This document shows positions 1 to 59,336 of a DNA stretch of 64,000 bases, piece after piece; position 1 is the stretch's first letter; each line of letters starts with the position of its first letter. Below the pieces are notes generated by a model. The model searched no databases. It was given only the letters and a program-made list of their open reading frames with translations, and had not been told where the DNA came from. Location of the stretch: IMG/VR virus record IMGVR_UViG_3300022774_000002. One strand, 5' to 3'. The stretch comes from a virus. The position numbers and the translations under genes are program-made.

Positions 1-168
1 ATGAGTTCCAGGTAGAAGTGCTTGACGCTCTAAAAGATCCGTCCACAGTTGAAAAACAAGAACTACGTAACGAATACCTTGATCTAACAATATCTGATGA
101 GATTGAAGCTCTTGAAGCTATGGAAAATCTTGATGAGTTCCAAGTAGAAGTGCTTGACGCTCTAAAAG
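1..168 (+). repeat. 36-nt direct repeat (1-36 vs 133-168, 35/36 identical) encoding (D)EFQVEVLDALK twice, 132 nt (44 codons) apart
   Basis: atgagttccaGgtagaagtgcttgacgctctaaaag at 1-36 versus atgagttccaAgtagaagtgcttgacgctctaaaag at 133-168. Both copies are in the giant ORF frame. Confidence 0.9.
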
Positions 169-3100
169 CAGTTCAACAGGATGAACCTGATTCTTCAGCA
201 TTGCCAGCACCCGAAGATGATACCTTCACAACACAGTTGCAAAATGTGCTCAGTAATCAAGGCTTTCAAAACTCCCCACCTGAAAGGAAGTTACAGGAAG
301 CTATACGCCTACAACTTGAGAGTGGTGAAAGTCTATCAGCTCCACAACTTTTTTACGGAGCTTCCACATTCTTTGGTCAAGGTCAATACAACTCGCAACA
401 GGTCTATGATGTGTTAGAAGTTGCTGTTAACCAATACCTTGAAGCACAAGGTTTGATGAATGTGAATGTCGATAGTACGACCGCAGTTGATAACATAGAT
501 AAAATCCAAGCGATAGAAGCACGATTGCCTCGAATGTCAGATCGCACCGCAGCACGCGACGAAAATCAGCAGTATTCCACTCCTTTCCATTATTCATACT
601 TGGTCAACTGGGTAGCTAACTTACAACCCGATGATGTCGTTGTTGAACCTTCAGCCGGAACAGGTAATTTAGCTTGGGCTGCTAAGGTTATTGGTGCTGA
701 GGTGCATGTCAATGACATAGGACAATTTCGCCACCATCTCTTACAGCAAAACTTCCAAAATGTAACGAATGTCGATGCTTCTAACATTGCACAGCAGCTC
801 CCTAATGTTAATGCGACATTAGTTGTTATGAACCCACCTTTTAGTAGCACACGCGGACAACGCAAAAACCTTACGCTCGGTATGAACATGGTAGAGTCCG
901 CTCTCGAAACACTACAACCTGGTGGCAGACTTGTCGCTATTGTCAACGGGGGACGTGACCTTACACCTGAAATGCGAGCGGGTGAAGCTCCTGGTGGCGG
1001 TCCACATTTCAACGCTGATAACTACCGAAAGATCTGGAATAGAATAGCAAGCAAACATGCCGTGAGAGCAAACTTGCACGTCAGTGGTGAAGTATATAAA
1101 GAGTTCGGTACTACTTTCAATACTCGATTACTTGTTATTGATAAATATCCAGTTGTCATAAATGAACCGATACGGAATCAAACAGACGGATCACTGAAAT
1201 CTGAATATGACACGATGCATAAACAACGTGTCGACACTATCAAAGAAGCAGTAGAACTACTGGAAGGAGTTAGATATGAGCGTTCCGGAGAACAATCATC
1301 CAGTGAATCAACACGCCAAACAACTACTGAGACAACTCCCGGAGGACAATCCGTATTACCCACACAACCAGGACAATCCACAACTCCACAGTCTGATCCT
1401 TCTGGAGTGGTTCCTGGAGGAGATAGTGCCGTTCAACCCGGAGATGGAACAACGCCTCCCCAAACAAACGTGGACAGACCTGGAACAGAAGGCACGGGAA
1501 CTACGGGACATGGGGACAGAAGCCGCGTGGAAATGGATGATGATCAAACAGGAGACACGGAAAGAGATGGAACTGGAACCGGACTTCAACCCGATAGCCG
1601 AACTGACGGAAGCGAAGAGACTGATGCAGGGGGCGTGGATGATGGCGGACGCAGTGCAGACACTAATATACGAACAAGTACACAACGAGAAAATACAACC
1701 CAATTAGACGAATCCGAAAGCACTAAACAGGTAGATGCTGGTAAGTCTTGGATGCCTGCTGCGGACTCTCATGTCATTATGGGTAAAGAGGTTAGCCTCG
1801 TTGAAACTGTATCGCTTGGACTTATTGATAGTCCTGATGTGGCTAACGTTGATGTTAATATTGCTGAGCCTGCCAAATCCCGATATTCCAATGCACAGAT
1901 GAAAGCAATCAAGTTGAATATCCGTGCACACGATGCACATATTGAACCTGAAATCTTAGGAGACGCACCCACGCGTCGTGGCATGTATAACGGTGATGAT
2001 ACAGGTGTTGGGAAAACATGGATCGCAGCAGGAACTATCATTCACTACCAGAATCAAGGTATTACGAAGCATATCGTTGTGGGAGCTGACAAGAAATGGC
2101 TTAAAGATTTTAATGAAGTATTTACACTCGCAGGTGGTAACGCAGATACCCTATTTGAACTCGGCAGCCAAAAGAATTTACCAGCTTCTGGTGTTATGTT
2201 AACAACTTACGGCACACTTCGCGGTAAAGGTCAAGAAACAAAACGGTTGAGTCAAGTATTAGAATGGGCTACAGGACAAAAACCTCCGCAATCCTTACTC
2301 AGTCCGCAGACAGACTTTGAACTCGCACACTTTGGAGAACTGCCCCGAACTTTTGCTTTAGCTGTCACTGAATACAATGCTGGTAATCCGATGCCAACAC
2401 GCGTCACTGATCTGATAAACGAGTGGAACGGTCTGTCGCAAGGCACTGGACAATCTATTGATGAAATCCCGGATTCTTATATAAATAGCTACCAAGACAT
2501 ACTCAAAGAACAAGAAACACTCATGGCTCTCGAAGGAGAGGTTGGTCCAGCTGAATGGATGAAAAATGCTGCGGGATATGACGGCACAATCACCTTTGAT
2601 GAATCACATAACATGAAAAACTCTGAAGGTGAGAACGCTACAAACACAGGTATACGGGGTAGACAACTCCAGAGATTACTTCCAGACGGACGCGTAACCT
2701 ACTATTCTGCTACAGGCACAACCGTTATTGACAACATCGCCTATATGGAAAGATTAGGTATATGGGGTAGAGATAAACCGTTTGCCAATTCTGAAGACTT
2801 TATCACTGATATGAAAAACGGGGGCTTAAGTGCTCAAGAAGTCATGGTACGTGATCTGAAAGCACAAGGCTTATTTATTTCTCGTGGTCTTGATATGTCA
2901 GATGTTATGGTAGACGATCTTGTTCATGAGTTGACACCTGTTCAACGACAAACCTACAACGAACTTGCTCATGCATGGCAAGAGATCAGATTATATCTAC
3001 ACCAGTATCTTGGCAGTCTTGAAGTGCTTGCTGAAGAATCTGATGGCGGTAAAGGTGATGTCGGTAAAAAGAAAGGGGATATTTGGGGTGAATACTACTC

Positions 3101-6100
3101 TAAACAACTTGACTTCTTCCAAGCAGTGCTAAATGCTTTCAAAATGCAGACTGTTCTTGAGGACATGAAAAAACAACTTGATCAAGGAAAAAAGGTGTCC
3201 ATCCAGTTCACGAACACCTACGAAGAATCACAAAAACGACAAGTTGACCGCGCAGAACGCGAAGGTATTGACATTAGTGAAATTGAATTTGGAGCGCGTG
3301 AGTTTTTGGAAGATTATCTTGACCCCGAAACAGGTGTATTTCCTACCTATGATTATGAGGTTATCTATGATCCTGTATTAGATAAAGACACATTGCGTCC
3401 TGTGACAAATAGCACTAATCAAATTATAGAAATCAAATATACGGATGCGCGCGGTCAACAAAAGGTGGAACGTGTGCCACCCGGTAAGCCTATACCCAAT
3501 GTGAACAACATTCAGAACCGTGAACGTATACTTGGATTAGTCTATAACTCTCACATGCCTGAACCCCCGCTTGACCAATTTGTTCAGATGTTCAAGGATA
3601 GAGGACAGGAGATCGCTGAGATTACAGGTCGAGAGTCTCGATACTACCGTAATGAAGAAGGTGAACGACAAAAAGAAAAGTTAAGTGGTGGTGATGCTGC
3701 ACTGCGTAAACTTGTCGAAAATTTCAATGATAATGAGTTGTTCGGTCTCGCATTCTCTAAAAAGGGTGCTACCGGTGCGAATTATCCTGCTACTGATCCG
3801 AACCATACCATCGTCCAGTATATCATTCAAGCAGGTTGGGAAGCTGACACACTCAAACAAGGTATGGGACGACACAAACGTTCTAATGAGGTTGCTCCCC
3901 CTGAAATCAAAAACACCTATACCGATGTAATTGGAGAAAAACGATTTGCGTCTACTGCGGCAGCACGGATGGCAGAAATGGGAGCTACAACCCGGTCACT
4001 TGCTGCTGGGGGAACTGGTCTTGATATATTTGATTTTGATGTTAAGTATCTACAGACAGAATACGGAGCTAATGCATTATATGATTTCTTTTCTGAACTC
4101 AACGAGGGATATACCTTTACTGTGCCTGGAGAAACAAACCCTGACGGTACACCTATGGTAATAGGCATGTATAGCAGTGAGGAAGCAGGAATTACTGGTA
4201 TAGATGTTGTAACTGGATTGAGCATTGAACTTGAACAGAATATGGTAAAAAAAGATAAAATGCCACCTGTAAAGCGATTTCTCAATCGTGTGCTTGGATC
4301 ACCAAGTATAGAAATCCAAGACACTCTATATGCCGAATACTATCGCAGATTACAGACAAGATTATCTCAAGCTAAGGCGGAAAACACACTTGATGTAGGT
4401 GTCGGAACACTACCCATAAAAAATGCAGAGATTGTCAACAATACAGTCCTCGCTACTGACCAAGAGTCCGGTGCAAATACATACGGCACAATCGTTCAAG
4501 CTGATGAAGAAGTGCCAAAAATCAATTTCGACGAACTCAAAACGATGATGACAGCTGACTCCCATTCAAACTACTGGTTTGTTGAGGATACAGAAGGTAA
4601 TGTATACCTTGATAAAGAAGTTCCCGCTCGTGTTGATGCAAGCACAGGTGAATCAAAACCCTGGGTTAGACGAACACAACCTGATGGCACAAATAGATAT
4701 GGTGAAGCTGAAAACGCTTATGGTGAAGGTTGGACACTGCAAGAGATCCGTGTTAGTGTCCGTGAGGATGGTTCTGAATCATGGTCTTTAGGAAATACAG
4801 AAAATGGTAGAAATAACCAGTTAGGTAGCACCATATACGACGAAATGATTCATGCACGATCATCTGAAGAAGTTGATGCTGCATTCAAAGACAAATGGGA
4901 TGCCAAGTATGATGAAACTTCAGCAACTAAAACTATATATCTACGCATGGTGCAGGGATTGATGTTACCTGTATGGGATAAAATCAATCCACCTATTGAA
5001 TACCCTGAAGGCACAGAACAATATAATCGTGAACTACGTAAACGTAGGCTTGTTCGTATCAATCTCGAAGATGGAACGGACATCATCGGTAGACAATTCG
5101 CATCGGTTGGAGAATACAATCAGATATTTGAAAACTTCGGTGTAGCTGCCCCTGACCAAAGTGTTACTGTCGCTACAGTCCCAATGAACCAGACTGGCGT
5201 GATGAACATGATAAATCAAGATGGGTATACCGTTGAACTTACGGATGGGTTATCTATTCGGACACGTCAACGTGCAGGACAAACTTATCTCGTCGTTGAA
5301 GGTGACCGGTCGCGACTCGAAAGCTTAATGAACGACAATATACTGGATCGCTTCCGTCCAGGTGGTGGTGGTTGGGTGTATTCCGTGCCTAACGATAACA
5401 TCACTACCTTGTTCAGTCGACATAAGCCTGTGCGTGCTAACAAACGCGGGGATATACTCAATATAAATTATGAAACTCCGGGAGGGACACCTAATGTTCC
5501 GGACGAAAATCAGACGGGAAATGAACAAGAATCTATTCCTACAGATCCAGAAGAAGCAAACAAACAACAAAAAGATAAGGTACGCGAAAGATTAGACGCT
5601 GCCGAAGTAGCTATACGTAACAGCATCTCACAAGGATGGGACTGGATCAATACCGAACGTATGGAGAGGTTTTCTATTATAGATGAGAGGTTATCTACCT
5701 TATCGTCTGAATTGATTGATGAATGGATAGAGGCATCTGATGAACTTACAGGTGTTAAAGTTTCACGCGAACGCAGTGAACGTATCCTTGCTGATAATAT
5801 CGGTAGCTGGATGGCTGAAGAAAAAAGCAAGCAAGATAGAATTCTTGGTCAAGAACATGATCAACAACTCACGGAAAATGAACACCTACAGGCTCTCGGT
5901 ATTGATCCTAATAACTGGCAAATCTGGACTGCGGAAGAACGCGAAGCAGAAGTAAATCGTATTTATGAAGCACTCTTACAACGTGAAATCAACGAGGAAG
6001 ATTTCAACATATCTCAAGCACAAGTGCAAGCTGTCAATGCCCTAATATCTGGTGAACTCGGTGATGTTGTCAATATCGCTGACACTGCAGACACACAACC

Positions 6101-9100
6101 CACTGAAGAAGGATGGCGACATGCATTCCCAAAAGGAAAAGCTGAACGCAATAAAGTGCGAGCAGAATACACAGCACAGGTGCAACAGATTATTACAAAT
6201 GAAACCGACTCAAAGGTGAAAGTGCGTCTGCGAAATGTAAATAAACAGTTGCAGTCAGGAGATTATTTCGGATTGCATGGTAGAACGATTCAATCTGGTG
6301 CTGAAGCTGCTCTTATAGCACAATTTATACGGAATCCACTCATAGAAAGCACACTCATACTGCTCCGCAAAGATAATAAGATTGTCCGTGCTGAATGGCT
6401 TTCACTTGGACAAACAGAGAACACGTCACCAGGAGTGAAAGCCGAAGTTGAACGTATGCTTGCAGATGAGAACGCTGACGACTTTATCCGAGTTCATAAT
6501 CACCCAAGCAAAGTAGCCAAGTTTTCTAATAAGGATATGAATACTGCCAATAACTGGCGTAATCATTTCGGCACACGGCTTGCTGAAGAAATTGTTATCG
6601 ATGAAGGGACTTATGCCCGAAGCCATTTTGACCAAGAAGGTGAAGCGCGCTTTGAGAACGAACTTCAATTAGACCTTGAAAATGGAACTATCGTCCAGCC
6701 TGAGTTTTTCGGTGCGTTTATGAAAACACCAAAGGGATGGACTACCTTAATGATGTTAGATGATGCTGGAAAGGTTGTCTCAGCAATGGATATTCAAGGA
6801 CTATACGATAAAGGTGTTCTTCAAAACAAACTTGAAAAGATACTTGAAATGACACCGAGAGCTACTCGGATGCACGTCATAGCTGGCAAAGGAAATGATG
6901 GAGCAGAACGCATCCTACATAATAACCTCTCAAATAATCCTGTTGTTGAGTCTATGTGGGTAGAGGGTAGACCTGTTAGATTACAATCTCCTTCAAATAG
7001 ACATCGGGTAAGTCGGGAATCAAGGGTCGCTCCTACAGATGACACAATTGAACGGAATATCGGAGGCACAAATCAGCGATTTGTAAAGATTGATCCTAAC
7101 GATCTAAGAGATGTAAAAGAGAAACGCAAACCTGTCATCATAGCTGGCATAACTCACGATCTTGTGAGAGATACCAATCGAGAAGATGTATCCAAGCGTA
7201 CGCGTGGCGATGCTGAACACATGGTATCAGCTGTTAGACGGGCAAAAGTAGATTTACTTGATCAAGAGAAACTCCAAGCTGCCCGGAATACGGTTATACA
7301 GGTTGTTGGACAAGAAACAAAATTTAAAGACGTGTTTGAAAAAATGGTAGGATTCCAACAACAGTTGCAGGGACTGGAATCTTATTATAATGCACTTGAT
7401 CAACTTGGCTGGGACAAGATTAAAGCTGACACTGTAGGAGATCTTAAGGCAATTGTAGATGAAAGCCCGACACTTCAAACGCCAGAGGTGTTAGCACTTT
7501 TTGAAGGTCATGATCCACAATCTGATGCTTATAATATTAATTTATCTGATATTCACAAAATAAAAAACACAGTGTTTGAAAAGAAACGGGCGTTAAGAGA
7601 TCAAAATATCAATCTCAGGGATCAAATAAGACATGATCATCATTCTGTACAATTTGCTGAGAGAACTATGGTTGATTCTGTTCAAGAAATGCTTAGTGAT
7701 CATAAGATAAGTATCGAACGCGTTGAAGATTTGTATAAATACCTTGATGAAGCACCGGCAGCGAAGGTAAAAGCAGCGTTAGATGACCTTTGGGGACACA
7801 TTTCAACGGAGCAAGCTGTCTATAACCTTGTCTTACAGGATGGGCATTTAAAAGCTTTATCTCCCACAGGTGATAAAAACATCAACGAAGGTATGTTAGC
7901 ATACACTTCATACAGTGCCTACTATAGGCGAAATGAACACTTTTATAACTATGGATTCATTTTGGATATGGAGAAGATACTAAACGAAATACCCAACGTC
8001 ACGGGAACTGTCCATGTTCGCAATGTGTGGCGTGAGCGAGCAGACTTAAATAACCCTGATGAAATCCGTGAAGCAATGGAAGCTTGGCATGATCCGGGTG
8101 ATGAGGACATAGTTATTGAAGTCCGTATGCCCCAAAATGTGTCTATAAACGATTACCTTATCGGTGTCATTGAAGATGGTGAGGTATATGTAAAATCTGA
8201 ATACAACACAGACAACGAAGGAGAATTAAGCGACTATGCAGCAGAACGTGATGTTGATAGTGCTTCTGTTATTGTAAATCCACGCCAGGATACTGAAATG
8301 TCCTTTGAGGGACAAGACTCTCTGAAAAATAAAGGTGCTAAAGAGGCTGTCCAATTTTTCTCTCAGATCGACGAGGAACTCGGAAAACGTGTCGGTAACT
8401 GGATACCCGCAATGCGTAAAGGTTGGAATGACACAATGGCAGTCTTTGAATCTGGACGACGCGGATTAGAGAAACTACGTAGCAAACCTGGTGCAAAAGC
8501 CACTCCTTTTGAAGCTGCAAGTAATGACCTTGACTTAGCAATGATAGACGCTGTTACACGGATCTCCGGAATACGCAATATCACCAACCCTGTGCTAAAA
8601 GAACGAAAGGCACTTATTACTCAGTTATCTAAAGCAGAAGGGATCAGTCGATCGCAACTCACCAGTGATATAAACGAAGCTATCTCTGACTATCGAGAAC
8701 ACAATAAACCGATAGAAAACAACGCTAACCTACGTGCCTATGAAGATGATGATCTCATGGCACAGGTGAAAGAATACGCGGATAAGGAAAAGGAAGCTTG
8801 GAAACAGATCATCAGACAAAGCGATGAAGATATTATCACCCTTGTCAAGGCTGCAGATAAAAATAATGAAAAGCTTACATATCCAAATGGTGAGCCGATC
8901 ACACCTCTCCCAATTGATGGGTTTCATTATGATCTCGAACGTGACGGTTGGGTGCAGATGTCAAAATGGAATGCAAAGCAAGGACGTATGCGTCCAGCAA
9001 CTGAAACTGACATGCAACGGACTTGGACAACTGCGGAAGTGTTCGCACAGGCTGAGCGTTTCTATGTGCCACACCATTATACCAAAGAACATCTACTCAC

Positions 9101-11087
9101 CCGTAAAGATCGTGTCAATAAACTCCTGGAAGAACTAAACTATGCTGACGCAACAAATGATGTTTCGGACATCGATGACATGGTTGGGATACAACATGAA
9201 GGTGAAAAATACATCTTTAGACATACAGGTGAAGATTTTACCGCGGTAGAAGCTGTTATACAACGTGCCAAGGAGTACTGGAACAACGAGGACGCAAGTG
9301 TCCGTCAATATATCAATGCTCATGATGATGGCACACTCGCACGTTTTGGACACTTGGAACATCAACGCAAAACTGATGACCGACACTATGTGAAAGACAT
9401 CGAGGTTCATATCAAGATGATCGAACAAGCTACACGAAGAATGTCCTTGATCGCCTACTTTGGACAAGATCATGGTATAATAGGTAAGTCTCCTCGATTC
9501 AAAGCCCGTATGATGCAGATGTCAAGGTATTCGCATACTCCAGAAGAAGCAGCTTTACTCGCTATGTATACCGCGATGGGTGCTGACAAAATTGGAATGT
9601 TTGAACACCTGTATGACTTAGGTTCTGGCACACCTAAACAGGACTTCGACATTTTAGGCAGATGGAAAGACAAAGAAACAGGTGATCTCAAAGACCTGGA
9701 TATTGATCGATTAGAGTTATCCGACAACCAGTTGGAAACACTTCGTAAGATTGGACTCTTGGAAAAAGATGGAAATGAAAATTGGCGAGTTGTGGGTAGT
9801 AGCGTGAAAGCGCGCCACCAAACTATGCAACGACACTTCGCTGATTACTCATCTACGATCGCTGGTAGGCTGAAACACTTTATGAACACTCTGAATTCCA
9901 CTGCTGACGGACCGATACGTTCACTTACTGATAACAAAACTAACAAGCTTGTGTCAAAAGTGAACTCGGCAACGACTATGTTGACACTCGGACCGCGGAC
10001 AGCACTCCAAAACTTATCTGAACTGCCAAACATTATAGCTGCCGCAGGAATGAGTAACTTTATCAAGGGATTGAAGTTTATCAGTAATCCAGATAGCAGA
10101 CACCTTGTGAAAATGCTATCATCTGCTTTAGATCACGGGCATAGGTATATGGCAGAGACAAAAGGTGAACAATGGTATTTACAAAGTCCGCTGTCATTCT
10201 TTACGCAATCTGAGTTATTATCCCGTGAGTCTGGTGTTGCTATCGGATGGGTAAATGCGAAAGATAGGATACAAGCTTACCTTAATAATCCCTCACAAGC
10301 GAATCGACACGCCCTCGATGATGTGAAGATAAATAAGAATGTGATTGACGCATTCAAAACTGAAGCATCAGAAGCCGTTGACCTTGAAGATCTATTCACT
10401 GAAGCCGAACAACGTGTCCTTCATGGAAGTATGCCTGTCGGTGGGTTTCAGAAAGTTGGTGCATCATCTGCCTCAAACAAGTGGGTAGATATAATCGGGC
10501 AAGAACTACAACGTTCAGCTGTATATATGTCTCAGGATTTCCTCAAACGCTACGATGCTTTTTCAATGCCACCCTGGTTAGCAGAAAGACACCCGTTTGT
10601 AAATCTATTCTTCAAATACAGATCGTGGGGCTTTCAAAACCATGAGTTGCTCGCACGTAGGTGGAGACAAGCATGGCGACAAGGAAAAGAAGGTAACTGG
10701 ACTCCATTCCTAAATATGTCATTAGCAGCTGGCGTGCTAACACCGCTTGGAATTGGGGCATTAGGTTATGCTTTCACTGTATTTCAAGCTTTAGATGACG
10801 ATGATCCGTTTGCTCTTGAGATACTAAAAACCTTTACCGCAGCACAATCGTTTGGTATGGCTTCCATTCTTATTGAAGCTGTGGCACACGCAGGTGATAA
10901 TCCATTTCGATTGGAACACTCACTACGAGGACAATATAGCGGTCCCGCATTGAGTATTGCCACACGAATACTCGCACCTGTATTCACCGGTGATTTCAAA
11001 GAGGTCTTTGAACAACTCAGCCGAAGGTTGCCGATTTCACGAGAGGCACACTATCTGGGACTGAATAAGATTTTTGATGAGGAGTAA
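1..11087 (+). CDS. giant multidomain (polyvalent-type) protein, 5'-partial: N6-adenine DNA methyltransferase + Sbno/SNF2-like helicase + RadC/JAB-like domain + about 1480 aa unassigned C-terminal region
   Basis: Track ORF 18..11087 (3689 aa) begins at an in-frame GTG, but the same frame is open from nt 3 to the window edge, so the gene is truncated at its 5' end. Motifs read directly: EPSAGTG (645-665), NPPF (831-842), DDTGVGKT (1995-2018), DESH (2598-2609), QGMGRHKRSNE (3858-3890), HNHPS (6495-6509). Confidence 0.9.
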   Translation, partial: EFQVEVLDALKDPSTVEKQELRNEYLDLTISDEIEALEAMENLDEFQVEVLDALKAVQQDEPDSSALPAPEDDTFTTQLQNVLSNQGFQNSPPERKLQEAIRLQLESGESLSAPQLFYGASTFFGQGQYNSQQVYDVLEVAVNQYLEAQGLMNVNVDSTTAVDNIDKIQAIEARLPRMSDRTAARDENQQYSTPFHYSYLVNWVANLQPDDVVVEPSAGTGNLAWAAKVIGAEVHVNDIGQFRHHLLQQNFQNVTNVDASNIAQQLPNVNATLVVMNPPFSSTRGQRKNLTLGMNMVESALETLQPGGRLVAIVNGGRDLTPEMRAGEAPGGGPHFNADNYRKIWNRIASKHAVRANLHVSGEVYKEFGTTFNTRLLVIDKYPVVINEPIRNQTDGSLKSEYDTMHKQRVDTIKEAVELLEGVRYERSGEQSSSESTRQTTTETTPGGQSVLPTQPGQSTTPQSDPSGVVPGGDSAVQPGDGTTPPQTNVDRPGTEGTGTTGHGDRSRVEMDDDQTGDTERDGTGTGLQPDSRTDGSEETDAGGVDDGGRSADTNIRTSTQRENTTQLDESESTKQVDAGKSWMPAADSHVIMGKEVSLVETVSLGLIDSPDVANVDVNIAEPAKSRYSNAQMKAIKLNIRAHDAHIEPEILGDAPTRRGMYNGDDTGVGKTWIAAGTIIHYQNQGITKHIVVGADKKWLKDFNEVFTLAGGNADTLFELGSQKNLPASGVMLTTYGTLRGKGQETKRLSQVLEWATGQKPPQSLLSPQTDFELAHFGELPRTFALAVTEYNAGNPMPTRVTDLINEWNGLSQGTGQSIDEIPDSYINSYQDILKEQETLMALEGEVGPAEWMKNAAGYDGTITFDESHNMKNSEGENATNTGIRGRQLQRLLPDGRVTYYSATGTTVIDNIAYMERLGIWGRDKPFANSEDFITDMKNGGLSAQEVMVRDLKAQGLFISRGLDMSDVMVDDLVHELTPVQRQTYNELAHAWQEIRLYLHQYLGSLEVLAEESDGGKGDVGKKKGDIWGEYYSKQLDFFQAVLNAFKMQTVLEDMKKQLDQGKKVSIQFTNTYEESQKRQVDRAEREGIDISEIEFGAREFLEDYLDPETGVFPTYDYEVIYDPVLDKDTLRPVTNSTNQIIEIKYTDARGQQKVERVPPGKPIPNVNNIQNRERILGLVYNSHMPEPPLDQFVQMFKDRGQEIAEITGRESRYYRNEEGERQKEKLSGGDAALRKLVENFNDNELFGLAFSKKGATGANYPATDPNHTIVQYIIQAGWEADTLKQGMGRHKRSNEVAPPEIKNTYTDVIGEKRFASTAAARMAEMGATTRSLAAGGTGLDIFDFDVKYLQTEYGANALYDFFSELNEGYTFTVPGETNPDGTPMVIGMYSSEEAGITGIDVVTGLSIELEQNMVKKDKMPPVKRFLNRVLGSPSIEIQDTLYAEYYRRLQTRLSQAKAENTLDVGVGTLPIKNAEIVNNTVLATDQESGANTYGTIVQADEEVPKINFDELKTMMTADSHSNYWFVEDTEGNVYLDKEVPARVDASTGESKPWVRRTQPDGTNRYGEAENAYGEGWTLQEIRVSVREDGSESWSLGNTENGRNNQLGSTIYDEMIHARSSEEVDAAFKDKWDAKYDETSATKTIYLRMVQGLMLPVWDKINPPIEYPEGTEQYNRELRKRRLVRINLEDGTDIIGRQFASVGEYNQIFENFGVAAPDQSVTVATVPMNQTGVMNMINQDGYTVELTDGLSIRTRQRAGQTYLVVEGDRSRLESLMNDNILDRFRPGGGGWVYSVPNDNITTLFSRHKPVRANKRGDILNINYETPGGTPNVPDENQTGNEQESIPTDPEEANKQQKDKVRERLDAAEVAIRNSISQGWDWINTERMERFSIIDERLSTLSSELIDEWIEASDELTGVKVSRERSERILADNIGSWMAEEKSKQDRILGQEHDQQLTENEHLQALGIDPNNWQIWTAEEREAEVNRIYEALLQREINEEDFNISQAQVQAVNALISGELGDVVNIADTADTQPTEEGWRHAFPKGKAERNKVRAEYTAQVQQIITNETDSKVKVRLRNVNKQLQSGDYFGLHGRTIQSGAEAALIAQFIRNPLIESTLILLRKDNKIVRAEWLSLGQTENTSPGVKAEVERMLADENADDFIRVHNHPSKVAKFSNKDMNTANNWRNHFGTRLAEEIVIDEGTYARSHFDQEGEARFENELQLDLENGTIVQPEFFGAFMKTPKGWTTLMMLDDAGKVVSAMDIQGLYDKGVLQNKLEKILEMTPRATRMHVIAGKGNDGAERILHNNLSNNPVVESMWVEGRPVRLQSPSNRHRVSRESRVAPTDDTIERNIGGTNQRFVKIDPNDLRDVKEKRKPVIIAGITHDLVRDTNREDVSKRTRGDAEHMVSAVRRAKVDLLDQEKLQAARNTVIQVVGQETKFKDVFEKMVGFQQQLQGLESYYNALDQLGWDKIKADTVGDLKAIVDESPTLQTPEVLALFEGHDPQSDAYNINLSDIHKIKNTVFEKKRALRDQNINLRDQIRHDHHSVQFAERTMVDSVQEMLSDHKISIERVEDLYKYLDEAPAAKVKAALDDLWGHISTEQAVYNLVLQDGHLKALSPTGDKNINEGMLAYTSYSAYYRRNEHFYNYGFILDMEKILNEIPNVTGTVHVRNVWRERADLNNPDEIREAMEAWHDPGDEDIVIEVRMPQNVSINDYLIGVIEDGEVYVKSEYNTDNEGELSDYAAERDVDSASVIVNPRQDTEMSFEGQDSLKNKGAKEAVQFFSQIDEELGKRVGNWIPAMRKGWNDTMAVFESGRRGLEKLRSKPGAKATPFEAASNDLDLAMIDAVTRISGIRNITNPVLKERKALITQLSKAEGISRSQLTSDINEAISDYREHNKPIENNANLRAYEDDDLMAQVKEYADKEKEAWKQIIRQSDEDIITLVKAADKNNEKLTYPNGEPITPLPIDGFHYDLERDGWVQMSKWNAKQGRMRPATETDMQRTWTTAEVFAQAERFYVPHHYTKEHLLTRKDRVNKLLEELNYADATNDVSDIDDMVGIQHEGEKYIFRHTGEDFTAVEAVIQRAKEYWNNEDASVRQYINAHDDGTLARFGHLEHQRKTDDRHYVKDIEVHIKMIEQATRRMSLIAYFGQDHGIIGKSPRFKARMMQMSRYSHTPEEAALLAMYTAMGADKIGMFEHLYDLGSGTPKQDFDILGRWKDKETGDLKDLDIDRLELSDNQLETLRKIGLLEKDGNENWRVVGSSVKARHQTMQRHFADYSSTIAGRLKHFMNTLNSTADGPIRSLTDNKTNKLVSKVNSATTMLTLGPRTALQNLSELPNIIAAAGMSNFIKGLKFISNPDSRHLVKMLSSALDHGHRYMAETKGEQWYLQSPLSFFTQSELLSRESGVAIGWVNAKDRIQAYLNNPSQANRHALDDVKINKNVIDAFKTEASEAVDLEDLFTEAEQRVLHGSMPVGGFQKVGASSASNKWVDIIGQELQRSAVYMSQDFLKRYDAFSMPPWLAERHPFVNLFFKYRSWGFQNHELLARRWRQAWRQGKEGNWTPFLNMSLAAGVLTPLGIGALGYAFTVFQALDDDDPFALEILKTFTAAQSFGMASILIEAVAHAGDNPFRLEHSLRGQYSGPALSIATRILAPVFTGDFKEVFEQLSRRLPISREAHYLGLNKIFDEE
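540..1150 (+). other. domain: SAM-dependent N6-adenine DNA methyltransferase module of the giant protein
   Basis: Motif I-like VVEPSAGTGNL and motif IV VVMNPPFS in the order typical of gamma-class amino-methyltransferases. A QYSTP segment lies just upstream. Boundaries are approximate. Confidence 0.8.
1287..1730 (+). other. low-complexity T/G/D/S/P/E-rich linker (predicted disordered) between the methyltransferase and helicase modules
   Basis: The translation is dominated by runs such as SSSESTRQTTTETTPGGQS, GTEGTGTTGHGD and DGTGTGLQPDSRTDGSEETDAGGVDDGG, with no hydrophobic core pattern. Confidence 0.7.
1950..4010 (+). other. domain: Sbno (strawberry-notch)/SNF2-like DExH helicase module
   Basis: Walker A DDTGVGKTW and DESHNMKN. 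The C-terminal lobe has LAFSKKGATGANY and QAGWEADTLKQGMGRHKRSNEVAPPE, resembling the GRTHRSNQ signature of Helicase_C_4-type proteins, followed by KRFASTAAARMAEMGATTRS. Boundaries are approximate. Confidence 0.75.
6250..6640 (+). other. domain: RadC/JAB-like module
   Basis: RVHNHPSKVAKFSNKDMNTANNW matches the HNHPSG...S..D signature of RadC-type JAB domains. The preceding about 70 aa have the expected alpha/beta pattern. Confidence 0.65.
10698..10895 (+). other. C-terminal hydrophobic (TM-like) segments of the giant protein
   Basis: WTPFLNMSLAAGVLTPLGIGALGYAFTVFQAL and FTAAQSFGMASILIEAVAHAG are the only long uncharged hydrophobic stretches I saw in the 3689 aa. Confidence 0.5.
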
Positions 11088-16195: not shown

Positions 16196-16594
16196 TTATT
16201 CAGATTGTTTATTCTCAAGCCACTCCTTCACTTTAGCAAGAGGCATCTCCACATTTTTGTCGTTTGGTATATGTGCGATGACTTCTTCTTTGAAACGCTG
16301 ATACCAACGCATAGCGATGTCTTTATCACAAGTAGCGTCTAACAAAATACCTAAAGCACACTGAGCGGGACCGCTACCACCATAGCCCCAGTTGAAACCA
16401 TCGGGACTATGGTTTATGAGTGCTTGACTTGGTACTGGACTCAATTCAGTAAGACTATCAGGTATGGGATCACCGTTTTCATCTTCCTCACCGATATAAA
16501 CTGGAAATCCGCCCATAAGTGTTCGACTGGAACAGTCAAACAGATAGACCTTGTTTCTGATTTTAGTCTTAGAGTTATCACTCCTTTGATTCAT
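16196..16594 (-). CDS. hypothetical protein (conserved-looking NHSPDGFNWGYGGSGPAQCALGILLD core)
   Basis: 132-aa ORF. The Gly-rich core looks like a conserved phage domain of unknown function. No family name asserted. Confidence 0.6.
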   Translation of the reverse strand: MNQRSDNSKTKIRNKVYLFDCSSRTLMGGFPVYIGEEDENGDPIPDSLTELSPVPSQALINHSPDGFNWGYGGSGPAQCALGILLDATCDKDIAMRWYQRFKEEVIAHIPNDKNVEMPLAKVKEWLENKQSE

Positions 16595-17201
16595 GATTAT
16601 CTCCTATACTCATTGCCTCGCTTGCTTTACGCACCTTTTCAACATCAACACCAAGATAAGCCTGTGTAGTCTTTACATCCTGATGTCCAAGCATTTCCTT
16701 GACAGTAAAAATATCAGGTAAGATAGCATAAAGCCGTTGAGCATAACTCTTACGCAATGAATGTGTAGCGAGGTTGCCGTTCAAACCCGACCTTTCGCAC
16801 ACATCTTTGAATACCTGATGTGCTCGTTGCCTTGTGATCGAGACATGTTTTCCTTTTCGTTTCTGTCGCGATGGGAACAAGGGACGTTGTGGGTCTGTAT
16901 TCCCAAAGTATTCCTGATGCCACTCTATAAGGTCAGAGATTGCTTTCACGCCATCCGAATTGACTGGAACAGTGCGAGCGTTCTCTTTTCCTTTTACGAC
17001 ATACTTATTAAAGTGCAAAGTTTCAACAGGCTTGTCGTTCTGATAAACATCAGAGATTGTGAGAGCGAGCAGCTCACTAATCCGTCCACCTGTAGAAACA
17101 CCGATGAGAACGAGAGACTTATCACGTGTAGCAAATTCGCCATCAAAGCAGTCTGCTATTACACGGAGTTCGTCATTGCTGAGTGGTCTTGCTCCTCGCA
17201 T
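16578..17201 (-). CDS. int: tyrosine recombinase/integrase, catalytic domain only (207 aa)
   Basis: Catalytic signature in order: GGRISELLAL (Arg I), VVKGKENARTVPV (Lys), ATHSLRKSYAQ (His-x-x-Arg), LGHQDVKTTQAYL (His and the nucleophilic Tyr). GGAGA SD lies 4 nt upstream of the ATG. No N-terminal core-binding domain. Confidence 0.85.
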   Translation of the reverse strand: MRGARPLSNDELRVIADCFDGEFATRDKSLVLIGVSTGGRISELLALTISDVYQNDKPVETLHFNKYVVKGKENARTVPVNSDGVKAISDLIEWHQEYFGNTDPQRPLFPSRQKRKGKHVSITRQRAHQVFKDVCERSGLNGNLATHSLRKSYAQRLYAILPDIFTVKEMLGHQDVKTTQAYLGVDVEKVRKASEAMSIGDNHESKE

Positions 17202-17446
17202 AGTATCTCCTTTTCTCGTTGATCCCGCTCACAATCAATACAATCGGGTTCATGAGGTGTCGGACATCCACATTTATCGCAGAACTTATGCTCTGCTTCA
17301 AATCCGTATTTCTCGGACACATCATTTGCCCTTTGCGTCCATTCGGCATCGGTTTCATCTATACTTAGTGGACGCTTACAGACTACTTCAAGTTCATTGT
17401 TGCATAGTTCATTATAGCAACATTCACATTGAAATTCATTGTTCAT
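17159..17446 (-). CDS. Cys-rich (zinc-finger-like) small protein
   Basis: 95 aa with CECC...C near the N-terminus and CDKCGC...CIDC near the C-terminus. AAGGGG SD. The 3' end overlaps int by 43 nt in another frame. Confidence 0.65.
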   Translation of the reverse strand: MNNEFQCECCYNELCNNELEVVCKRPLSIDETDAEWTQRANDVSEKYGFEAEHKFCDKCGCPTPHEPDCIDCERDQREKEILCEEQDHSAMTNSV

Positions 17447-17483: not shown

Positions 17484-17581
17484 AAGGTGGGAAATCAGAC
17501 TCCCACCTTTTCAATCTGCCCAGTGCAGATTGAGATACGCAAGCAGGGAATTGAACCCTGCCATACGCACCAGCGTTGCGT
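17484..17581 (-). ncRNA. structured intergenic element, copy 1: tRNA top-half mimic (17536-17581) plus two hairpins (17511-17533, 17484-17509)
   Basis: Minus strand reads ACGCAA|CGC-UGGU-GCG|UAUG|GCAGGG-UUCAAUU-CCCUGC|UUGCGU|A, then UCAAUCUGC-ACUGG-GCAGAUUGA, then AAGGUGGGA-GUCUGAUU-UCCCACCUU. Homologous to 19572-19676 with compensatory changes. Confidence 0.7.
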
Positions 17582-17811
17582 TATTTAGAACATCCTATAC
17601 ACCTGTAGAAAATAAAATCAGGACGAACTTTTTCCCAATGATGCTCCATAGGTTTTCCGCATTCAGGACAATAAGCGTATTTATCCTTTAGCCCCTTTTC
17701 CTTGAGTAAATCGTTGCACCTGTCTACCCAATCGTAAAGAGATTCATTCGGTTTACGGTTGTTCTGGATTTCTTTTAATGCTTGGCTAATCTCTTTAGTC
17801 ATTTTAGTCAT
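17581..17811 (-). CDS. zinc-ribbon protein (76 aa)
   Basis: Start moved to the ATG at 17811, which overlaps the upstream stop as TAATG and has a GAGGAA SD. C-terminus CPECGKPMEHHWEKVRPDFIFYRCIGCSK has two CxxC pairs. Confidence 0.65.
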   Translation of the reverse strand: MTKMTKEISQALKEIQNNRKPNESLYDWVDRCNDLLKEKGLKDKYAYCPECGKPMEHHWEKVRPDFIFYRCIGCSK

Positions 17812-18167
17812 TAGTATTCCTCTGCTAACATTACCGTCATCAGACGATAAGCAGTTAGGAAATCGGATTCGTCCTCGCCCCATTCTTCATCATCTGGCAT
17901 ATCACACCTTGAATCTTGGAAGTAGTCAATCTTCCAGTAGATTTTAGGTTGTCCTTCAATCTGGACGACACCGAAATCGTGTTCTTTGTGTGGGTCATTC
18001 CCAGAAGGGAATTCGGATTGAGTTTTGATTGCCTTGATGACTTGTTGAAATACATCAGTTGGCAATCCGTTGACACCTTGAGTAAAACATACTTTACCAT
18101 AACTTATAGGTTGTGATAACACAGTTTTACGGAATATATCATTACGTATTTGCATTTGGGTCATCAT
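17811..18167 (-). CDS. DUF3768-like protein
   Basis: GNDPHKEHDFGVVQIEGQPKIYWKIDYFQD ... LMTVMLAEEY matches my recollection of the DUF3768 signature (NDPxGEHDFG...WKIDYYD...MLAsEY) seen on plasmids and phages. Needs an HMM check. Confidence 0.65.
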   Translation of the reverse strand: MMTQMQIRNDIFRKTVLSQPISYGKVCFTQGVNGLPTDVFQQVIKAIKTQSEFPSGNDPHKEHDFGVVQIEGQPKIYWKIDYFQDSRCDMPDDEEWGEDESDFLTAYRLMTVMLAEEY

Positions 18168-18175
18168 AAGAAAAT

Positions 18176-18199
18176 CAGGGACATGTCACCATGCCCCTG
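18176..18199 (-). promoter_or_regulatory. conserved intergenic RNA hairpin with GNRA (GUGA) tetraloop, copy 2
   Basis: Minus-strand reading is CAGGGGCAUG-GUGA-CAUGUCCCUG: a 10-bp stem including one G-U pair, followed by AUUUUCUUAUG containing the next start codon. Confidence 0.6.
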
Positions 18200-19139: not shown

Positions 19140-19274
19140 TTAGTAGCGTCTCTTACCACGCAGACGACTCCGTAATCTTTCACGTCTCTTACGACGTTCC
19201 AGTTTTAACTCTATACTTGACAGAATAATACCTGTCGCAACTAATAAGAATGAAAGAATACACGTTGCCAACAT
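19140..19274 (-). CDS. small membrane protein (44 aa: one TM segment plus Arg-rich tail), below the ORF-track cutoff
   Basis: Hand translation gives MLATCILSFLLVATGIILSSIELKLERRKRRERLRSRLRGKRRY. The ATG overlaps the upstream stop as TAATG. Stop at 19140-19142. Confidence 0.5.
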   Translation of the reverse strand: MLATCILSFLLVATGIILSSIELKLERRKRRERLRSRLRGKRRY

Positions 19275-19510
19275 TAGTCTGCTACCTCCGATAACTCGGT
19301 TTGCTGTGCTTCATAGGATTCTGTTGCCAGAAACAGAGCAGTTCCGAAACTTGTGAGTTGGGATGCATGGAATTCACCGCTCTCCCACCCTTTACGAATG
19401 AAAAATACCAAATACCTGTCATCACCTAACTCACGGATAACTACACCGCTTGATGTGCCGTTATCATCGTGTTTCACAACGACACTCTCATTGACTTCAA
19501 ATTTTTCCAT
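19274..19510 (-). CDS. hypothetical protein (78 aa)
   Basis: AGGAAAGGA SD upstream of the ATG at 19510. First gene downstream of tRNA-like element copy 2. Confidence 0.6.
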   Translation of the reverse strand: MEKFEVNESVVVKHDDNGTSSGVVIRELGDDRYLVFFIRKGWESGEFHASQLTSFGTALFLATESYEAQQTELSEVAD

Positions 19511-19571: not shown

Positions 19572-19676
19572 GTAGGGAGTCGTTGAATAACCGCTCCCTA
19601 CTTCAACTCCACACAATGCAGAATTGAATGCGTAAGGATGGAATTGAACCATCCTAAAACACACCAGTGTTTACGC
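19572..19676 (-). ncRNA. structured intergenic element, copy 2: tRNA top-half mimic (19629-19676) plus two hairpins (19602-19628, 19572-19601)
   Basis: Minus strand reads GCGUAA|ACAC-UGGU-GUGU|UUUA|GGAUGG-UUCAAUU-CCAUCC|UUACGC|A, then UUCAAUUCUGCA-UUG-UGUGGAGUUGAA, then GUAGGGAG-(14 nt)-CUCCCUAC. Confidence 0.7.
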
Positions 19677-19681
19677 GATGA

Positions 19682-20053
19682 CTAATAGTATGTTGATTCC
19701 AAATTTGGAATGGGATCATCAGAATAGCGTGTCGGTTCTGTTGTGAATTCACAATAACCGTTCACTATGCCATCAGATAAATCCTGTTCTCTGATTGTTT
19801 CCACATAAACATGACGTTCTAAATCTAACCAGAGAAAACCAAGCATAAAATAGTCGTTCCATTGGAAAAAATCAGTAATCACACCAGCGTCAATCGTTAT
19901 CTCACCTTCAAAAAATGCGTTAGTATGGTCTGCTACAACTTTACCAGCGTATTCAGATAAGACTTGACGAAAATCTTGATTACACCATGCTACCTTACGG
20001 GAGTCAGCATCGTTCAAATCAATGGATTCTAAATAGTGGGAAAAGGTATTCAT
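19682..20053 (-). CDS. hypothetical protein
   Basis: 123-aa ORF. Its start overlaps the upstream stop (ATGA). Confidence 0.6.
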   Translation of the reverse strand: MNTFSHYLESIDLNDADSRKVAWCNQDFRQVLSEYAGKVVADHTNAFFEGEITIDAGVITDFFQWNDYFMLGFLWLDLERHVYVETIREQDLSDGIVNGYCEFTTEPTRYSDDPIPNLESTYY

Positions 20054-20866: not shown

Positions 20867-20900
20867 AACAGGTAGATAGTTTTGATACCACCTACCTGTT
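20867..20900. repeat. GGTAG...CTACC intergenic hairpin family, copy C (larger loop)
   Basis: AACAGGTAG-(16 nt containing GATAC)-CTACCTGTT forms a 9-bp perfect stem. Confidence 0.65.
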
Positions 20901-22363: not shown

Positions 22364-22392
22364 ATCTTACCATGTCCTAACATTTTTGTCAA
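22364..22392 (-). promoter_or_regulatory. candidate sigma70-type promoter for the leftward (early) operon
   Basis: The minus strand reads TTGACA (22392-22387), a 17-nt spacer, then TAAGAT (22369-22364). By-eye match only. Confidence 0.35.
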
Positions 22393-59018: not shown

Positions 59019-59336
59019 ATGAACATTTTTGAAGTTGAACCAGACCAGACCAATGTGACGATAAAAGTAAAAACGCTTGGCGGCGAGTATCCTGAACTGG
59101 TGTATGTCCGCAGGATATATAAATACGCGATTTTTCGTGCAGCGAACTGGCGTAACTTTTGGCATATCTGGCATGGGAACAAAAGGAGACTCAAGCACCA
59201 TAAGTTAGAAGTGGTTAAAACCGATGGCAGATATGAGATTCATCTGCCACTCGGCTGGTATCATCATCAGCTGACAGAAAAAGCATTAGATCAACTTGGT
59301 GAAAAAAGAAAGAGAGATAGGTATGACGATATTTGA
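59019..59336 (+). CDS. hypothetical protein
   Basis: 105 aa from the ATG at 59019. No clear SD. Trp/His/Arg-rich. Confidence 0.45.
   Translation: MNIFEVEPDQTNVTIKVKTLGGEYPELVYVRRIYKYAIFRAANWRNFWHIWHGNKRRLKHHKLEVVKTDGRYEIHLPLGWYHHQLTEKALDQLGEKRKRDRYDDI

Follow-up and report, generated by a model that had tools for sequence, protein, structure and literature searches.

A family of compact tRNA-like elements between genes of bacteriophage operons, with a possible role as processing sites in polycistronic transcripts

The 64,000-nucleotide (nt) stretch of viral DNA analyzed here in its full length (IMG/VR virus record IMGVR_UViG_3300022774_000002, hereafter the window) carries two copies of a short tRNA-like element on its minus strand. 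Each copy of this mini-tRNA element bears an acceptor-like stem, a mini-hairpin, a short linker, a T arm and a discriminator A, and is followed by two hairpins; the coordinates of these parts and of the neighboring open reading frames (ORFs) are collected in Table 1. The original prediction, made from the letters of the window, had placed the second copy of this composite at 19572-19676, and its sequence and helices read exactly as claimed. A 12-base-pair (bp) hairpin and then an 8-bp hairpin are seen behind copy 2 in minimum-free-energy folds, in the same order as behind copy 1. The coordinates also confirm that both copies lie between a stop codon and the next ORF on the same strand (TAG and ATG for copy 2, TAA and ATG for copy 1). 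The first A of copy 1 is at the same time the last base of the upstream TAA, an overlap of 1 nt.

Table 1. Parts of the two mini-tRNA elements, the hairpins that follow them and features in their surroundings (positions are those of the window)
Feature	Position	Strand	Description
Copy 2, mini-tRNA element	19629-19676	minus	Sequence; minimum-free-energy fold is the proposed fold; match to covariance model R1; pair table
Copy 2, acceptor 5′ strand	19676-19671	minus	GCGUAA
Copy 2, mini-hairpin	19670-19659	minus	ACAC-UGGU-GUGU
Copy 2, linker	19658-19655	minus	UUUA
Copy 2, T stem and loop	19654-19636	minus	GGAUGG-UUCAAUU-CCAUCC; loop UUCAAUU at 19648-19642
Copy 2, acceptor 3′ strand	19635-19630	minus	UUACGC; discriminator A at 19629
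Copy 2, hairpin 1	19602-19628	minus	12 bp, 3-nt loop; begins immediately past the discriminator
Copy 2, hairpin 2	19572-19601	minus	8-bp outer stem and inner 3-bp stem; no U-tract after it
Copy 1, mini-tRNA element	17536-17581	minus	Sequence; match to R1; close homologs in loci L091, L159, L233 and L238
Copy 1, acceptor 5′ strand	17581-17576	minus	ACGCAA
Copy 1, mini-hairpin	17575-17566	minus	CGC-UGGU-GCG
Copy 1, linker	17565-17562	minus	UAUG
Copy 1, T arm	17561-17543	minus	GCAGGG-UUCAAUU-CCCUGC; loop at 17555-17549
Copy 1, acceptor 3′ strand	17542-17537	minus	UUGCGU; discriminator A at 17536
Copy 1, hairpin 1	17511-17533	minus	9 bp, 5-nt loop
Copy 1, hairpin 2	17484-17509	minus	10 bp, 6-nt loop
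ORF upstream of copy 2	19682-20053	minus	123 amino acids (aa), no family match; TAG (19684-19682) ends 5 nt ahead of the element
ORF downstream of copy 2	19274-19510	minus	78 aa; ATG at 19510, 118 nt past the discriminator; GGAAAGGAAC precedes the start
ORF upstream of copy 1	17581-17883	minus	100 aa, weak zinc-ribbon match; TAA at 17583-17581
ORF downstream of copy 1	17159-17446	minus	95 aa; ATG at 17446, 89 nt past the discriminator
Short tyrosine integrase	16578-17201	minus	207 aa, catalytic domain only; PF00589 E=6e-25, phrog_216; context, not part of the element
Best promoter-like site	22364-22392	minus	TTGACA-17-TAAGAT with TG; consensus match only

All five compensatory changes that had been claimed between the copies were found in a pair-by-pair comparison, with no pair broken. 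From copy 1 to copy 2, acceptor pair 1 changes from A-U to G-C and pair 4 from C-G to U-A, T-stem pair 2 from C-G to G-C and pair 4 from G-C to U-A, and mini-hairpin pair 2 from G-C to A-U; the mini-hairpin of copy 2 has one additional A-U pair. Acceptor and T stem measure 6 bp each in both copies (counted as 7 + 5 in the minimum-free-energy fold of copy 2), and only 14–16 nt separate the 5′ strand from the T stem. The loops UGGU and UUCAAUU are identical in the two copies, as predicted, although in the wider family described below their invariance is partly relaxed and only GG and UUCRA are kept. The 112-nt composites of element and two hairpins gave folding z scores of −6.3 and −6.4, and none of 200 shuffled sequences was as stable. 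In the thermodynamic minimum of copy 1, the 3′ acceptor strand forms a competing hairpin with GGUGCGUA and is not paired to the 5′ strand ACGCAA; the tRNA-like fold of this copy thus rests on comparative evidence and not on energy. This competing fold of lower energy, which leaves the 5′ strand free, is common to the ACGCAA-type copies, that is, to copy 1 and its homologs in L091, L159 and L233. Because the 5′ strand overlaps the stop codon, a terminating ribosome could choose between the two folds.

Three narrow pattern scans (two of viral sequences and one of genomes) were combined with scans of the window lineage, and a relaxed parser was run over all retrieved sequence. The family comprises at least 102 distinct elements by this parser. 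The pattern of the first viral scan, CTGGTG followed after 9–11 nt by GGTTCAATTCC, occurs in IMG/VR at 109 loci (77 distinct). When the bases right before CUGGUG were compared with those right after the T stem, an acceptor helix of at least 6 bp was present in 40 of the 77 distinct viral matches, against ~5 expected from swapping the 5′ flanks among the matches. With the same pattern, only 7 of 121 matches in cellular genomes were true elements and the remainder mostly noise, so the family is enriched in viruses. A second viral scan used the T loop TTCGANT; among the matches listed there were 112 further distinct cores, of which 57 had an acceptor helix of 6 bp or more, and ~55 of these also had a T stem of at least 4 bp.

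For an independent view of the window we used a covariance model (R1) built from nine sequences of seven viral families unrelated to the window, the window lineage being left out. Run on both strands of the whole window with filters off, R1 found copy 1 with 45.7 bits (E=1.2e-10) and copy 2 with 36.5 bits (E=5.1e-8), and the third match had E=0.41. The 219-kb genome of Bacillus phage 0305phi8-36, our negative control, gave no R1 match below E=0.97. This phage had been considered as a precedent and was rejected: its candidates are two low-score tRNAscan pseudo-tRNAs. A covariance-model search for further instances, the check named in the original prediction, yielded 67 matches (64 distinct sequences) across 54 sources, with the stems maintained. 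By R1, locus L049 carries six copies, L077 four, and L035 and L117 three each; two to six copies per phage are frequent in the family, and the stems differ between copies of one locus. Nucleotide searches found no match for the 5.2-kb region of the window in GenBank phages (megablast) and nothing useful for the multi-copy loci L049 and L077 in the same set (distant blastn). No match to the element type of L020 and phage phiPYB5 was found in E. coli genomes.

The covariation statistics rest on an alignment of 64 distinct rows which is fitted to R1, and this inflates the figures somewhat. Of the pair cells 97.1% are paired, compared to 55.8% in shuffled alignments and 38–53% with slid partners; 12 of 14 pairs covary, double changes occur in 381 cells, and all three helices are involved. 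The flank-swap control and the independence of the seed sequences are unaffected by the fitting. G·U and U·G pairs far outnumber A·C and C·A pairs (54 versus 7), so the structure forms in the RNA of the gene-sense strand. The earlier claim of selection on RNA structure, and not on a protein or a bare DNA site, is borne out by these numbers, and we regard the existence of the family and selection at the RNA level as close to certain.

The architecture is uniform, with a size of 42–48 nt. Acceptor and T stem form a continuous stack with a mode of 12–13 bp, usually a 6-bp T stem and a 6–7-bp acceptor. The T loop (UUCAAUU, UUCGAUU, UUCAACU or UUCGACU) keeps UUCRA and is closed by two G-C pairs. 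The mini-hairpin loop keeps GG, with UGGU and the variants UCGGU, AUGGU and CUGGC, and has a C-G closing pair in most sampled members; the linker measures 4–6 nt. With these features the element is a tRNA ‘top half’ in which the elbow of D loop and T loop has its stand-in, whereas the D stem and the anticodon arm are missing. Such a mini-tRNA is too short for any tRNA finder. Position 3:70 is C-G, G-C or U-A. An aminoacylation identity was ruled out, as there is no G3·U70 and CCA is encoded in only 1 of 102 elements.

Throughout the family the elements are intergenic and oriented like the flanking ORFs. For 65 of the 102 elements, the end of an ORF of 60 codons or more was located between −45 and +13 nt from the 12th stack pair; most of these ends cluster at −13 to +1, and their number falls sharply beyond +2. 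The commonest single arrangement, found in 9 of the 65 and also in copy 1, has stack nucleotide +1 as the final base of TAA or TAG, and almost no stop codon reaches further in. The next start codon mostly follows 20–50 nt past the element. The 40 nt downstream have a mean folding energy of −6.5 kcal/mol compared to −8.0 kcal/mol upstream. Since the family is thus no more structured downstream than upstream, the two hairpins behind the window copies are an addition of the window lineage; that a hairpin always follows the element was ruled out as a family rule and is kept for this lineage and for some others (L117). The neighboring proteins are heterogeneous: major head protein, small and large terminase, scaffold, portal, homing endonucleases and many unknowns. 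A gene-specific regulator was therefore rejected, the flanking proteins being unrelated to one another. Within 3 kb of the elements, terminase subunits are the commonest annotated large ORFs; an RtcB-type tRNA ligase and psbA are found at two loci each.

Several members lie in settings of their own. At L028 (288-332) an element stands between tRNA-Trp and tRNA-Leu, and the element of L143 is followed by a tRNA-like sequence that ARAGORN does not call; being located among tRNAs, such members must pass through the tRNA-processing pathway. L062 carries elements at 10494-10537 and 10884-10930 and, ~0.9 kb upstream on the same strand, a type II hammerhead ribozyme (9566-9634, plus strand, 69.9 bits). 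The hammerhead shares an operon with the two elements, which shows that phages put RNA-cleaving modules between genes. A strong member (48.6 bits) was found in the complete chromosome of Prochlorococcus sp. MIT 0707 (L160, 1595-1638, minus strand), with few ORFs around it and a tRNA-Met 6 kb off; an island or the remnant of a phage may be present there. In the cultured Lactobacillus phage phiPYB5 (L375, NC_027982.1) a member was found at 3058-3101, in an unannotated 536-nt gap before the small terminase gene (L375 2900-3435, corresponding to 7210-7745 of the record). Past this member the same gap holds two larger T-arm structures that are not called by ARAGORN, one with a GAGCUAA/UUAGCUC stem and the arm GGCGG-UUCGACU-CCGCC, the other with GCUGG-UUCGAUU-CCAGC and a weak tRNA-Sec match (18.8 bits).

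Among the relatives of the window phage, the 66-kb IMG/VR contig L091 encodes proteins up to 95% identical to those of the window, and the 67.8-kb contig L159, binned with a Candidatus Poribacteria metagenome-assembled genome (MAG), proteins up to 66% identical; going by L159, the window phage would have a Poribacteria-like host. ACGCAA-type composites are present in L091, L159, L233 and L238/L247, always as mini-tRNA, hairpin 1 (0–2 nt past the discriminator) and hairpin 2. Both hairpins formed in nine of nine lineage composites folded, while their sequences are wholly different between copies. L159 has two copies ~2 kb apart, as in the window, and L238 has three. Where the window, L233 and L091 have a short tyrosine recombinase downstream of one copy, L159 has a different ORF of 171 aa. 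The genes beside the element differ among these relatives while the element stays, and TAACGCA, stop codon included, recurs in five of eight lineage copies after unrelated upstream genes. In L091, three copies of CCTAACGGAG (~9590-9660, plus strand) lie in the spacer that leads from hairpin 2 to the next start codon.

The elements were compared to known RNA classes. ARAGORN called no tRNA and no transfer-messenger RNA (tmRNA) gene in the window. Rfam 15 gave no match there at gathering thresholds, no tRNA match (RF00005) even at E≤10 and no tmRNA family, and on nine further loci no Rfam family covers the elements. At E≤10 the only relevant match was that of copy 1 to mascRNA-menRNA (RF01684; 16.3 bits, E=9.9), the only Rfam model with a full-length alignment; the phiPYB5 member aligns to it with 18.1 bits, and both scores are far below the gathering threshold of 42.5. 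Neither window copy has the cloverleaf, D arm or anticodon arm of a canonical tRNA. Both show what characterizes the R1 family, namely a significant match, the stack with UUCRANN loop and GG mini-hairpin and an intergenic sense position behind a stop codon. In the literature we found no description of phage mini-tRNA elements; the unnamed candidates of large screens (10,006 viral RNA candidates, PMC10690425) could include the motif.

The closest functional analogies appear to be the t-element and mascRNA, which we think the phage elements work most like. The t-elements of plant mitochondria lie inside mRNA precursors and have the T-arm motif GGTTCRANYCC with an acceptor-like stem (Forner et al. 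2007, PMC1920247). Cuts made in them by RNase P and RNase Z generate 3′ and 5′ ends of mRNAs, the excised element gains a non-encoded C or CA, and some adjoin or even lie inside the ends of reading frames (PMC1920247). Both window copies carry the same T-arm motif as GGTTCAATTCC, again with an acceptor-like stem, and the phage elements likewise are tRNA-like structures in presumed mRNA precursors. However, t-elements are organellar, few and mostly larger, degenerate cloverleaves, whereas the phage elements are a uniform 42–48 nt long, have no anticodon arm, carry the UGGU mini-hairpin and occur in multiple copies. t-Elements are cleaved, while for the phage elements cleavage is a prediction from sequence. 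mascRNA and MEN-beta share the layout of acceptor stem, short GG hairpin right after the 5′ strand and T arm; mascRNA is a vertebrate nuclear RNA that keeps a small anticodon-like stem, the scores are far below threshold, and no homology is implied. In MALAT1, RNase P is guided by the element to generate the 3′ end of the RNA that precedes it, after which the element is set free.

Other systems resemble the elements in part. In mitochondrial tRNA punctuation, genes abut tRNA-shaped units and the stop codon can overlap their first nucleotide, as in copy 1 and the other members of that arrangement; these units are, however, real decoding tRNAs, and their incomplete stop codons are completed by polyadenylation, for which we know of no counterpart in phages. 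The tRNA-like domain of tmRNA combines an acceptor stem and a T arm with a D-loop analogue and has no anticodon arm, but tmRNA differs by the pseudoknots and the tag reading frame between its halves and by its G3·U70 alanine identity. Phage transcripts are known to carry structures that recruit a host endonuclease between cistrons, such as the RNase III sites of T7 and the RNase P substrates C4 (P1/P7) and CI (P4). Unlike the elements described here, these are plain hairpins or acceptor-like stems with CCA that lack T loop and elbow mimic, and the Rfam c4 family has no match in the window. The architecture is distinct, uniform and minimal, and it is new to find it set in bacteriophage operons.

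Our favored interpretation, drawn by analogy and held with middling confidence, is that each copy is a mimic of the tRNA top half which host RNase P, alone or together with RNase Z, would excise and which would punctuate the polycistronic phage mRNA. The stack of ~12 bp formed by acceptor and T stem would carry the canonical T loop UUCRANN, and the G's of the UGGU loop would stand in for G18/G19 of the D loop and complete a tRNA elbow. Transcribed within a polycistronic minus-strand operon, the element would be read as a pre-tRNA by the tRNA-maturation enzymes of the host. Its 5′ edge would be cleaved by RNase P, and a second cut past the discriminator A would be made by RNase Z or by a route of RNase E and exonuclease. 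The operon transcript would be split at 19.68 kb and 17.58 kb, and an RNA of ~46–48 nt would be released. In the window lineage these cuts would give the downstream mRNA a new 5′ end 0–2 nt before the two strong hairpins; with an RNase P cut alone, the downstream mRNA would start with the fully paired tRNA-like fold. Either arrangement would be expected to shield the 5′ end from 5′-end-dependent decay. Transcription through the element, the cleavages by RNase P and RNase Z and the stabilizing role of the hairpins are what we infer here.

RNase P, RNase Z and the CCA-adding enzyme use a 12-bp coaxial stack, a T loop and the elbow as determinants. We favor excision by host RNase P, whether or not RNase Z and the addition of CCA are involved, because the conserved features are those by which pre-tRNAs are measured, and would be needless for a plain roadblock or a protein-binding hairpin. 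A generic processing signal also fits the fact that the flanking genes are mutually unrelated.

Several observations weigh against processing of the transcript at the element. In the 9 of 65 members that overlap the stop codon, copy 1 included, an RNase P cut would take away the final base of this codon. The resulting non-stop mRNA looks costly, unless translation comes before cleavage or the end undergoes repair. Almost no element encodes CCA, nucleotide −1 of the window copies is not the preferred U, and RNase Z could be hindered by hairpin 1, which directly adjoins the discriminator. For the ACGCAA-type copies the minimum-free-energy fold is the competing hairpin and not the tRNA-like fold. 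The shielding of the 5′ end by hairpins is limited to the window lineage at most, given the lower structure downstream in the family. Finally, members in tRNA arrays need no punctuation, which hints that the excised RNA itself may matter.

An extended version of transcript punctuation, which we consider unlikely on balance, is that phages use a dedicated, minimal ‘punctuation tRNA’ and would have their operons processed like mitochondrial genomes, that RNase P would cut at or inside the stop codon, and that CCA-tailed mini-tRNAs of 46 nt would accumulate and titrate tRNA-directed host factors or defences. A cut at this place would explain the sharp mode at +1 (TA/A or TA/G). Punctuation together with titration would then form a widespread new layer of phage gene expression that depends on tRNA maturation by the host.

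In a related proposal the excised mini-tRNA of ~46 nt, once processed and furnished with CCA, acts in trans. It would be a decoy or sponge for factors of the host or of defence systems with affinity for the acceptor/T-arm half of tRNAs, namely acceptor-end-modifying toxins, nucleases of tRNA tails, modification enzymes, the CCA-adding enzyme or RNase P, with the intergenic site merely convenient for expression. It overlaps with punctuation because both require excision. The members inside tRNA arrays, where there is no mRNA to punctuate, speak for this reading, as do the up to six copies per locus and the strictly kept tRNA elbow, and tRNA-directed immunity is recognized, with Cas12a3 described as cleaving tRNA tails (PMC12851939). 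Yet the acceptor stems vary freely between copies of one genome, so that no particular tRNA identity is mimicked, the elements lack a promoter or terminator of their own, and no recurring partner protein stands beside them. We see a trans decoy as a doubtful explanation, with some chance of being correct.

Quite unlikely, in our estimation, is that the elements act uncleaved in cis. They would then either block 3′-to-5′ exonucleases in the manner of REP sequences and stabilize the upstream cistron, or serve as a switch coupled to termination, in which the terminating ribosome melts the acceptor stem at the stop codon, toggles between the tRNA-like fold and an alternative hairpin and tunes the next gene. 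The clustering of stop codons at −13 to +1 of the stack, almost never further in, speaks for this reading; the ACGCAA-type copies do have a well-defined competing fold that frees the 5′ strand, and a downstream Shine-Dalgarno sequence and start codon usually lie 20–50 nt away. But the alternative fold is restricted to one lineage and is missing from copy 2 and most families. Moreover, neither a roadblock nor a switch needs a canonical T loop, a GG mimic of the D loop and a 12-bp stack, and all of these are conserved across at least 100 sequences.

A role at the level of DNA, as the attP core or tRNA-gene remnant of a neighboring tyrosine integrase or as a recombination linker between phage modules, appears very improbable. 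In its favor, a short tyrosine recombinase lies downstream of one copy on the same strand in the window, in L233 (8447-9070) and in L091 (10795-11424), at distances of ~335 nt (copy 1), ~430 nt and 1.24 kb, respectively; the T arm with the 3′ strand resembles real tRNA 3′ ends in metagenomes (GGTTCAATTCCCGGCTTGCGCA), and the flanking genes vary among relatives while the element is kept. Like copy 1, attP sites that are tRNA 3′ fragments comprise a T arm and an acceptor 3′ strand near an integrase. However, such fragments are single-copy, bear no signature of an RNA strand and need only the 3′ segment of the tRNA, without mini-hairpin, whereas the complementary 5′ strand of the elements covaries in every copy and their excess of G·U over A·C points to constraint on one strand of RNA. 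Copy 2 is 2.4 kb away from the integrase, and L159, L238, L049 and L077 carry two to six copies. Integrase-family matches account for only 3 of 150 larger neighboring ORFs in 53 loci, so that a general association with integrases or attP is not supported at the family level. The view that the copies are not simply attP cores, put forward in the original prediction, therefore stands; copy 1 may also serve as attP in a second role. Chance similarity or decaying, functionless pseudo-tRNAs, which would agree with the lack of recognition by ARAGORN and Rfam, are effectively refuted by the independent R1 matches (E=1e-10 and 5e-8), the massive covariation, the consistent geometry and placement, the viral enrichment and the 0305phi8-36 control.

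The splitting of transcripts by tRNA enzymes has so far been documented in mitochondria and for a few eukaryotic long non-coding RNAs. The loci sampled here include contigs attributed to Lactobacillus, Clostridia, cyanobacteria and Poribacteria as well as many viral contigs without host assignment. If our interpretation holds, phages with very different hosts would, in many cases, rely on the tRNA enzymes of these hosts to divide their polycistronic mRNAs. The elements would also represent a large class of structured RNA missed by tRNA finders and Rfam 15, which would improve phage annotation and explain conserved ‘empty’ intergenic gaps such as that of phiPYB5, and synthetic operons could be designed with them as compact parts of 45 nt. 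An excised RNA with a function in trans would be relevant to the arms race over immunity that targets tRNAs. With one member present in the cultured phage phiPYB5, the hypothesis is directly testable.

In the surroundings of the two window copies, the promoter-like site listed in Table 1 could, as a sequence match, drive a minus-strand operon holding both elements. No promoter or terminator was called by our scan in the flanks of either copy. Judging from orientation and from the absence of such calls, the elements would be co-transcribed with their neighbors. The downstream hairpins were ruled out as intrinsic terminators; the terminator scan did not call them, and hairpin 2 of copy 2 has no U-tract. 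Terminator-like hairpins with T-tracts occur at 20867-20900 and 18176-18199, both on the minus strand and inside the string of genes that bears the elements, so the presumed operon may be subdivided at these sites.

The third R1 match in the window, at 59089-59117 on the plus strand (12.5 bits), is an AUCCUG/CAGGAU stem around an A-CUGGUG-U hairpin without a T arm, and may be a relic or due to chance. At the other end of the window (18-11087, plus strand) lies an ORF of 3689 aa that combines a methyltransferase domain, a Strawberry-notch-type helicase (AAA_34, Helicase_C_4) and a RadC-like JAB domain; this domain content resembles that of giant polyvalent proteins of the anti-restriction type.

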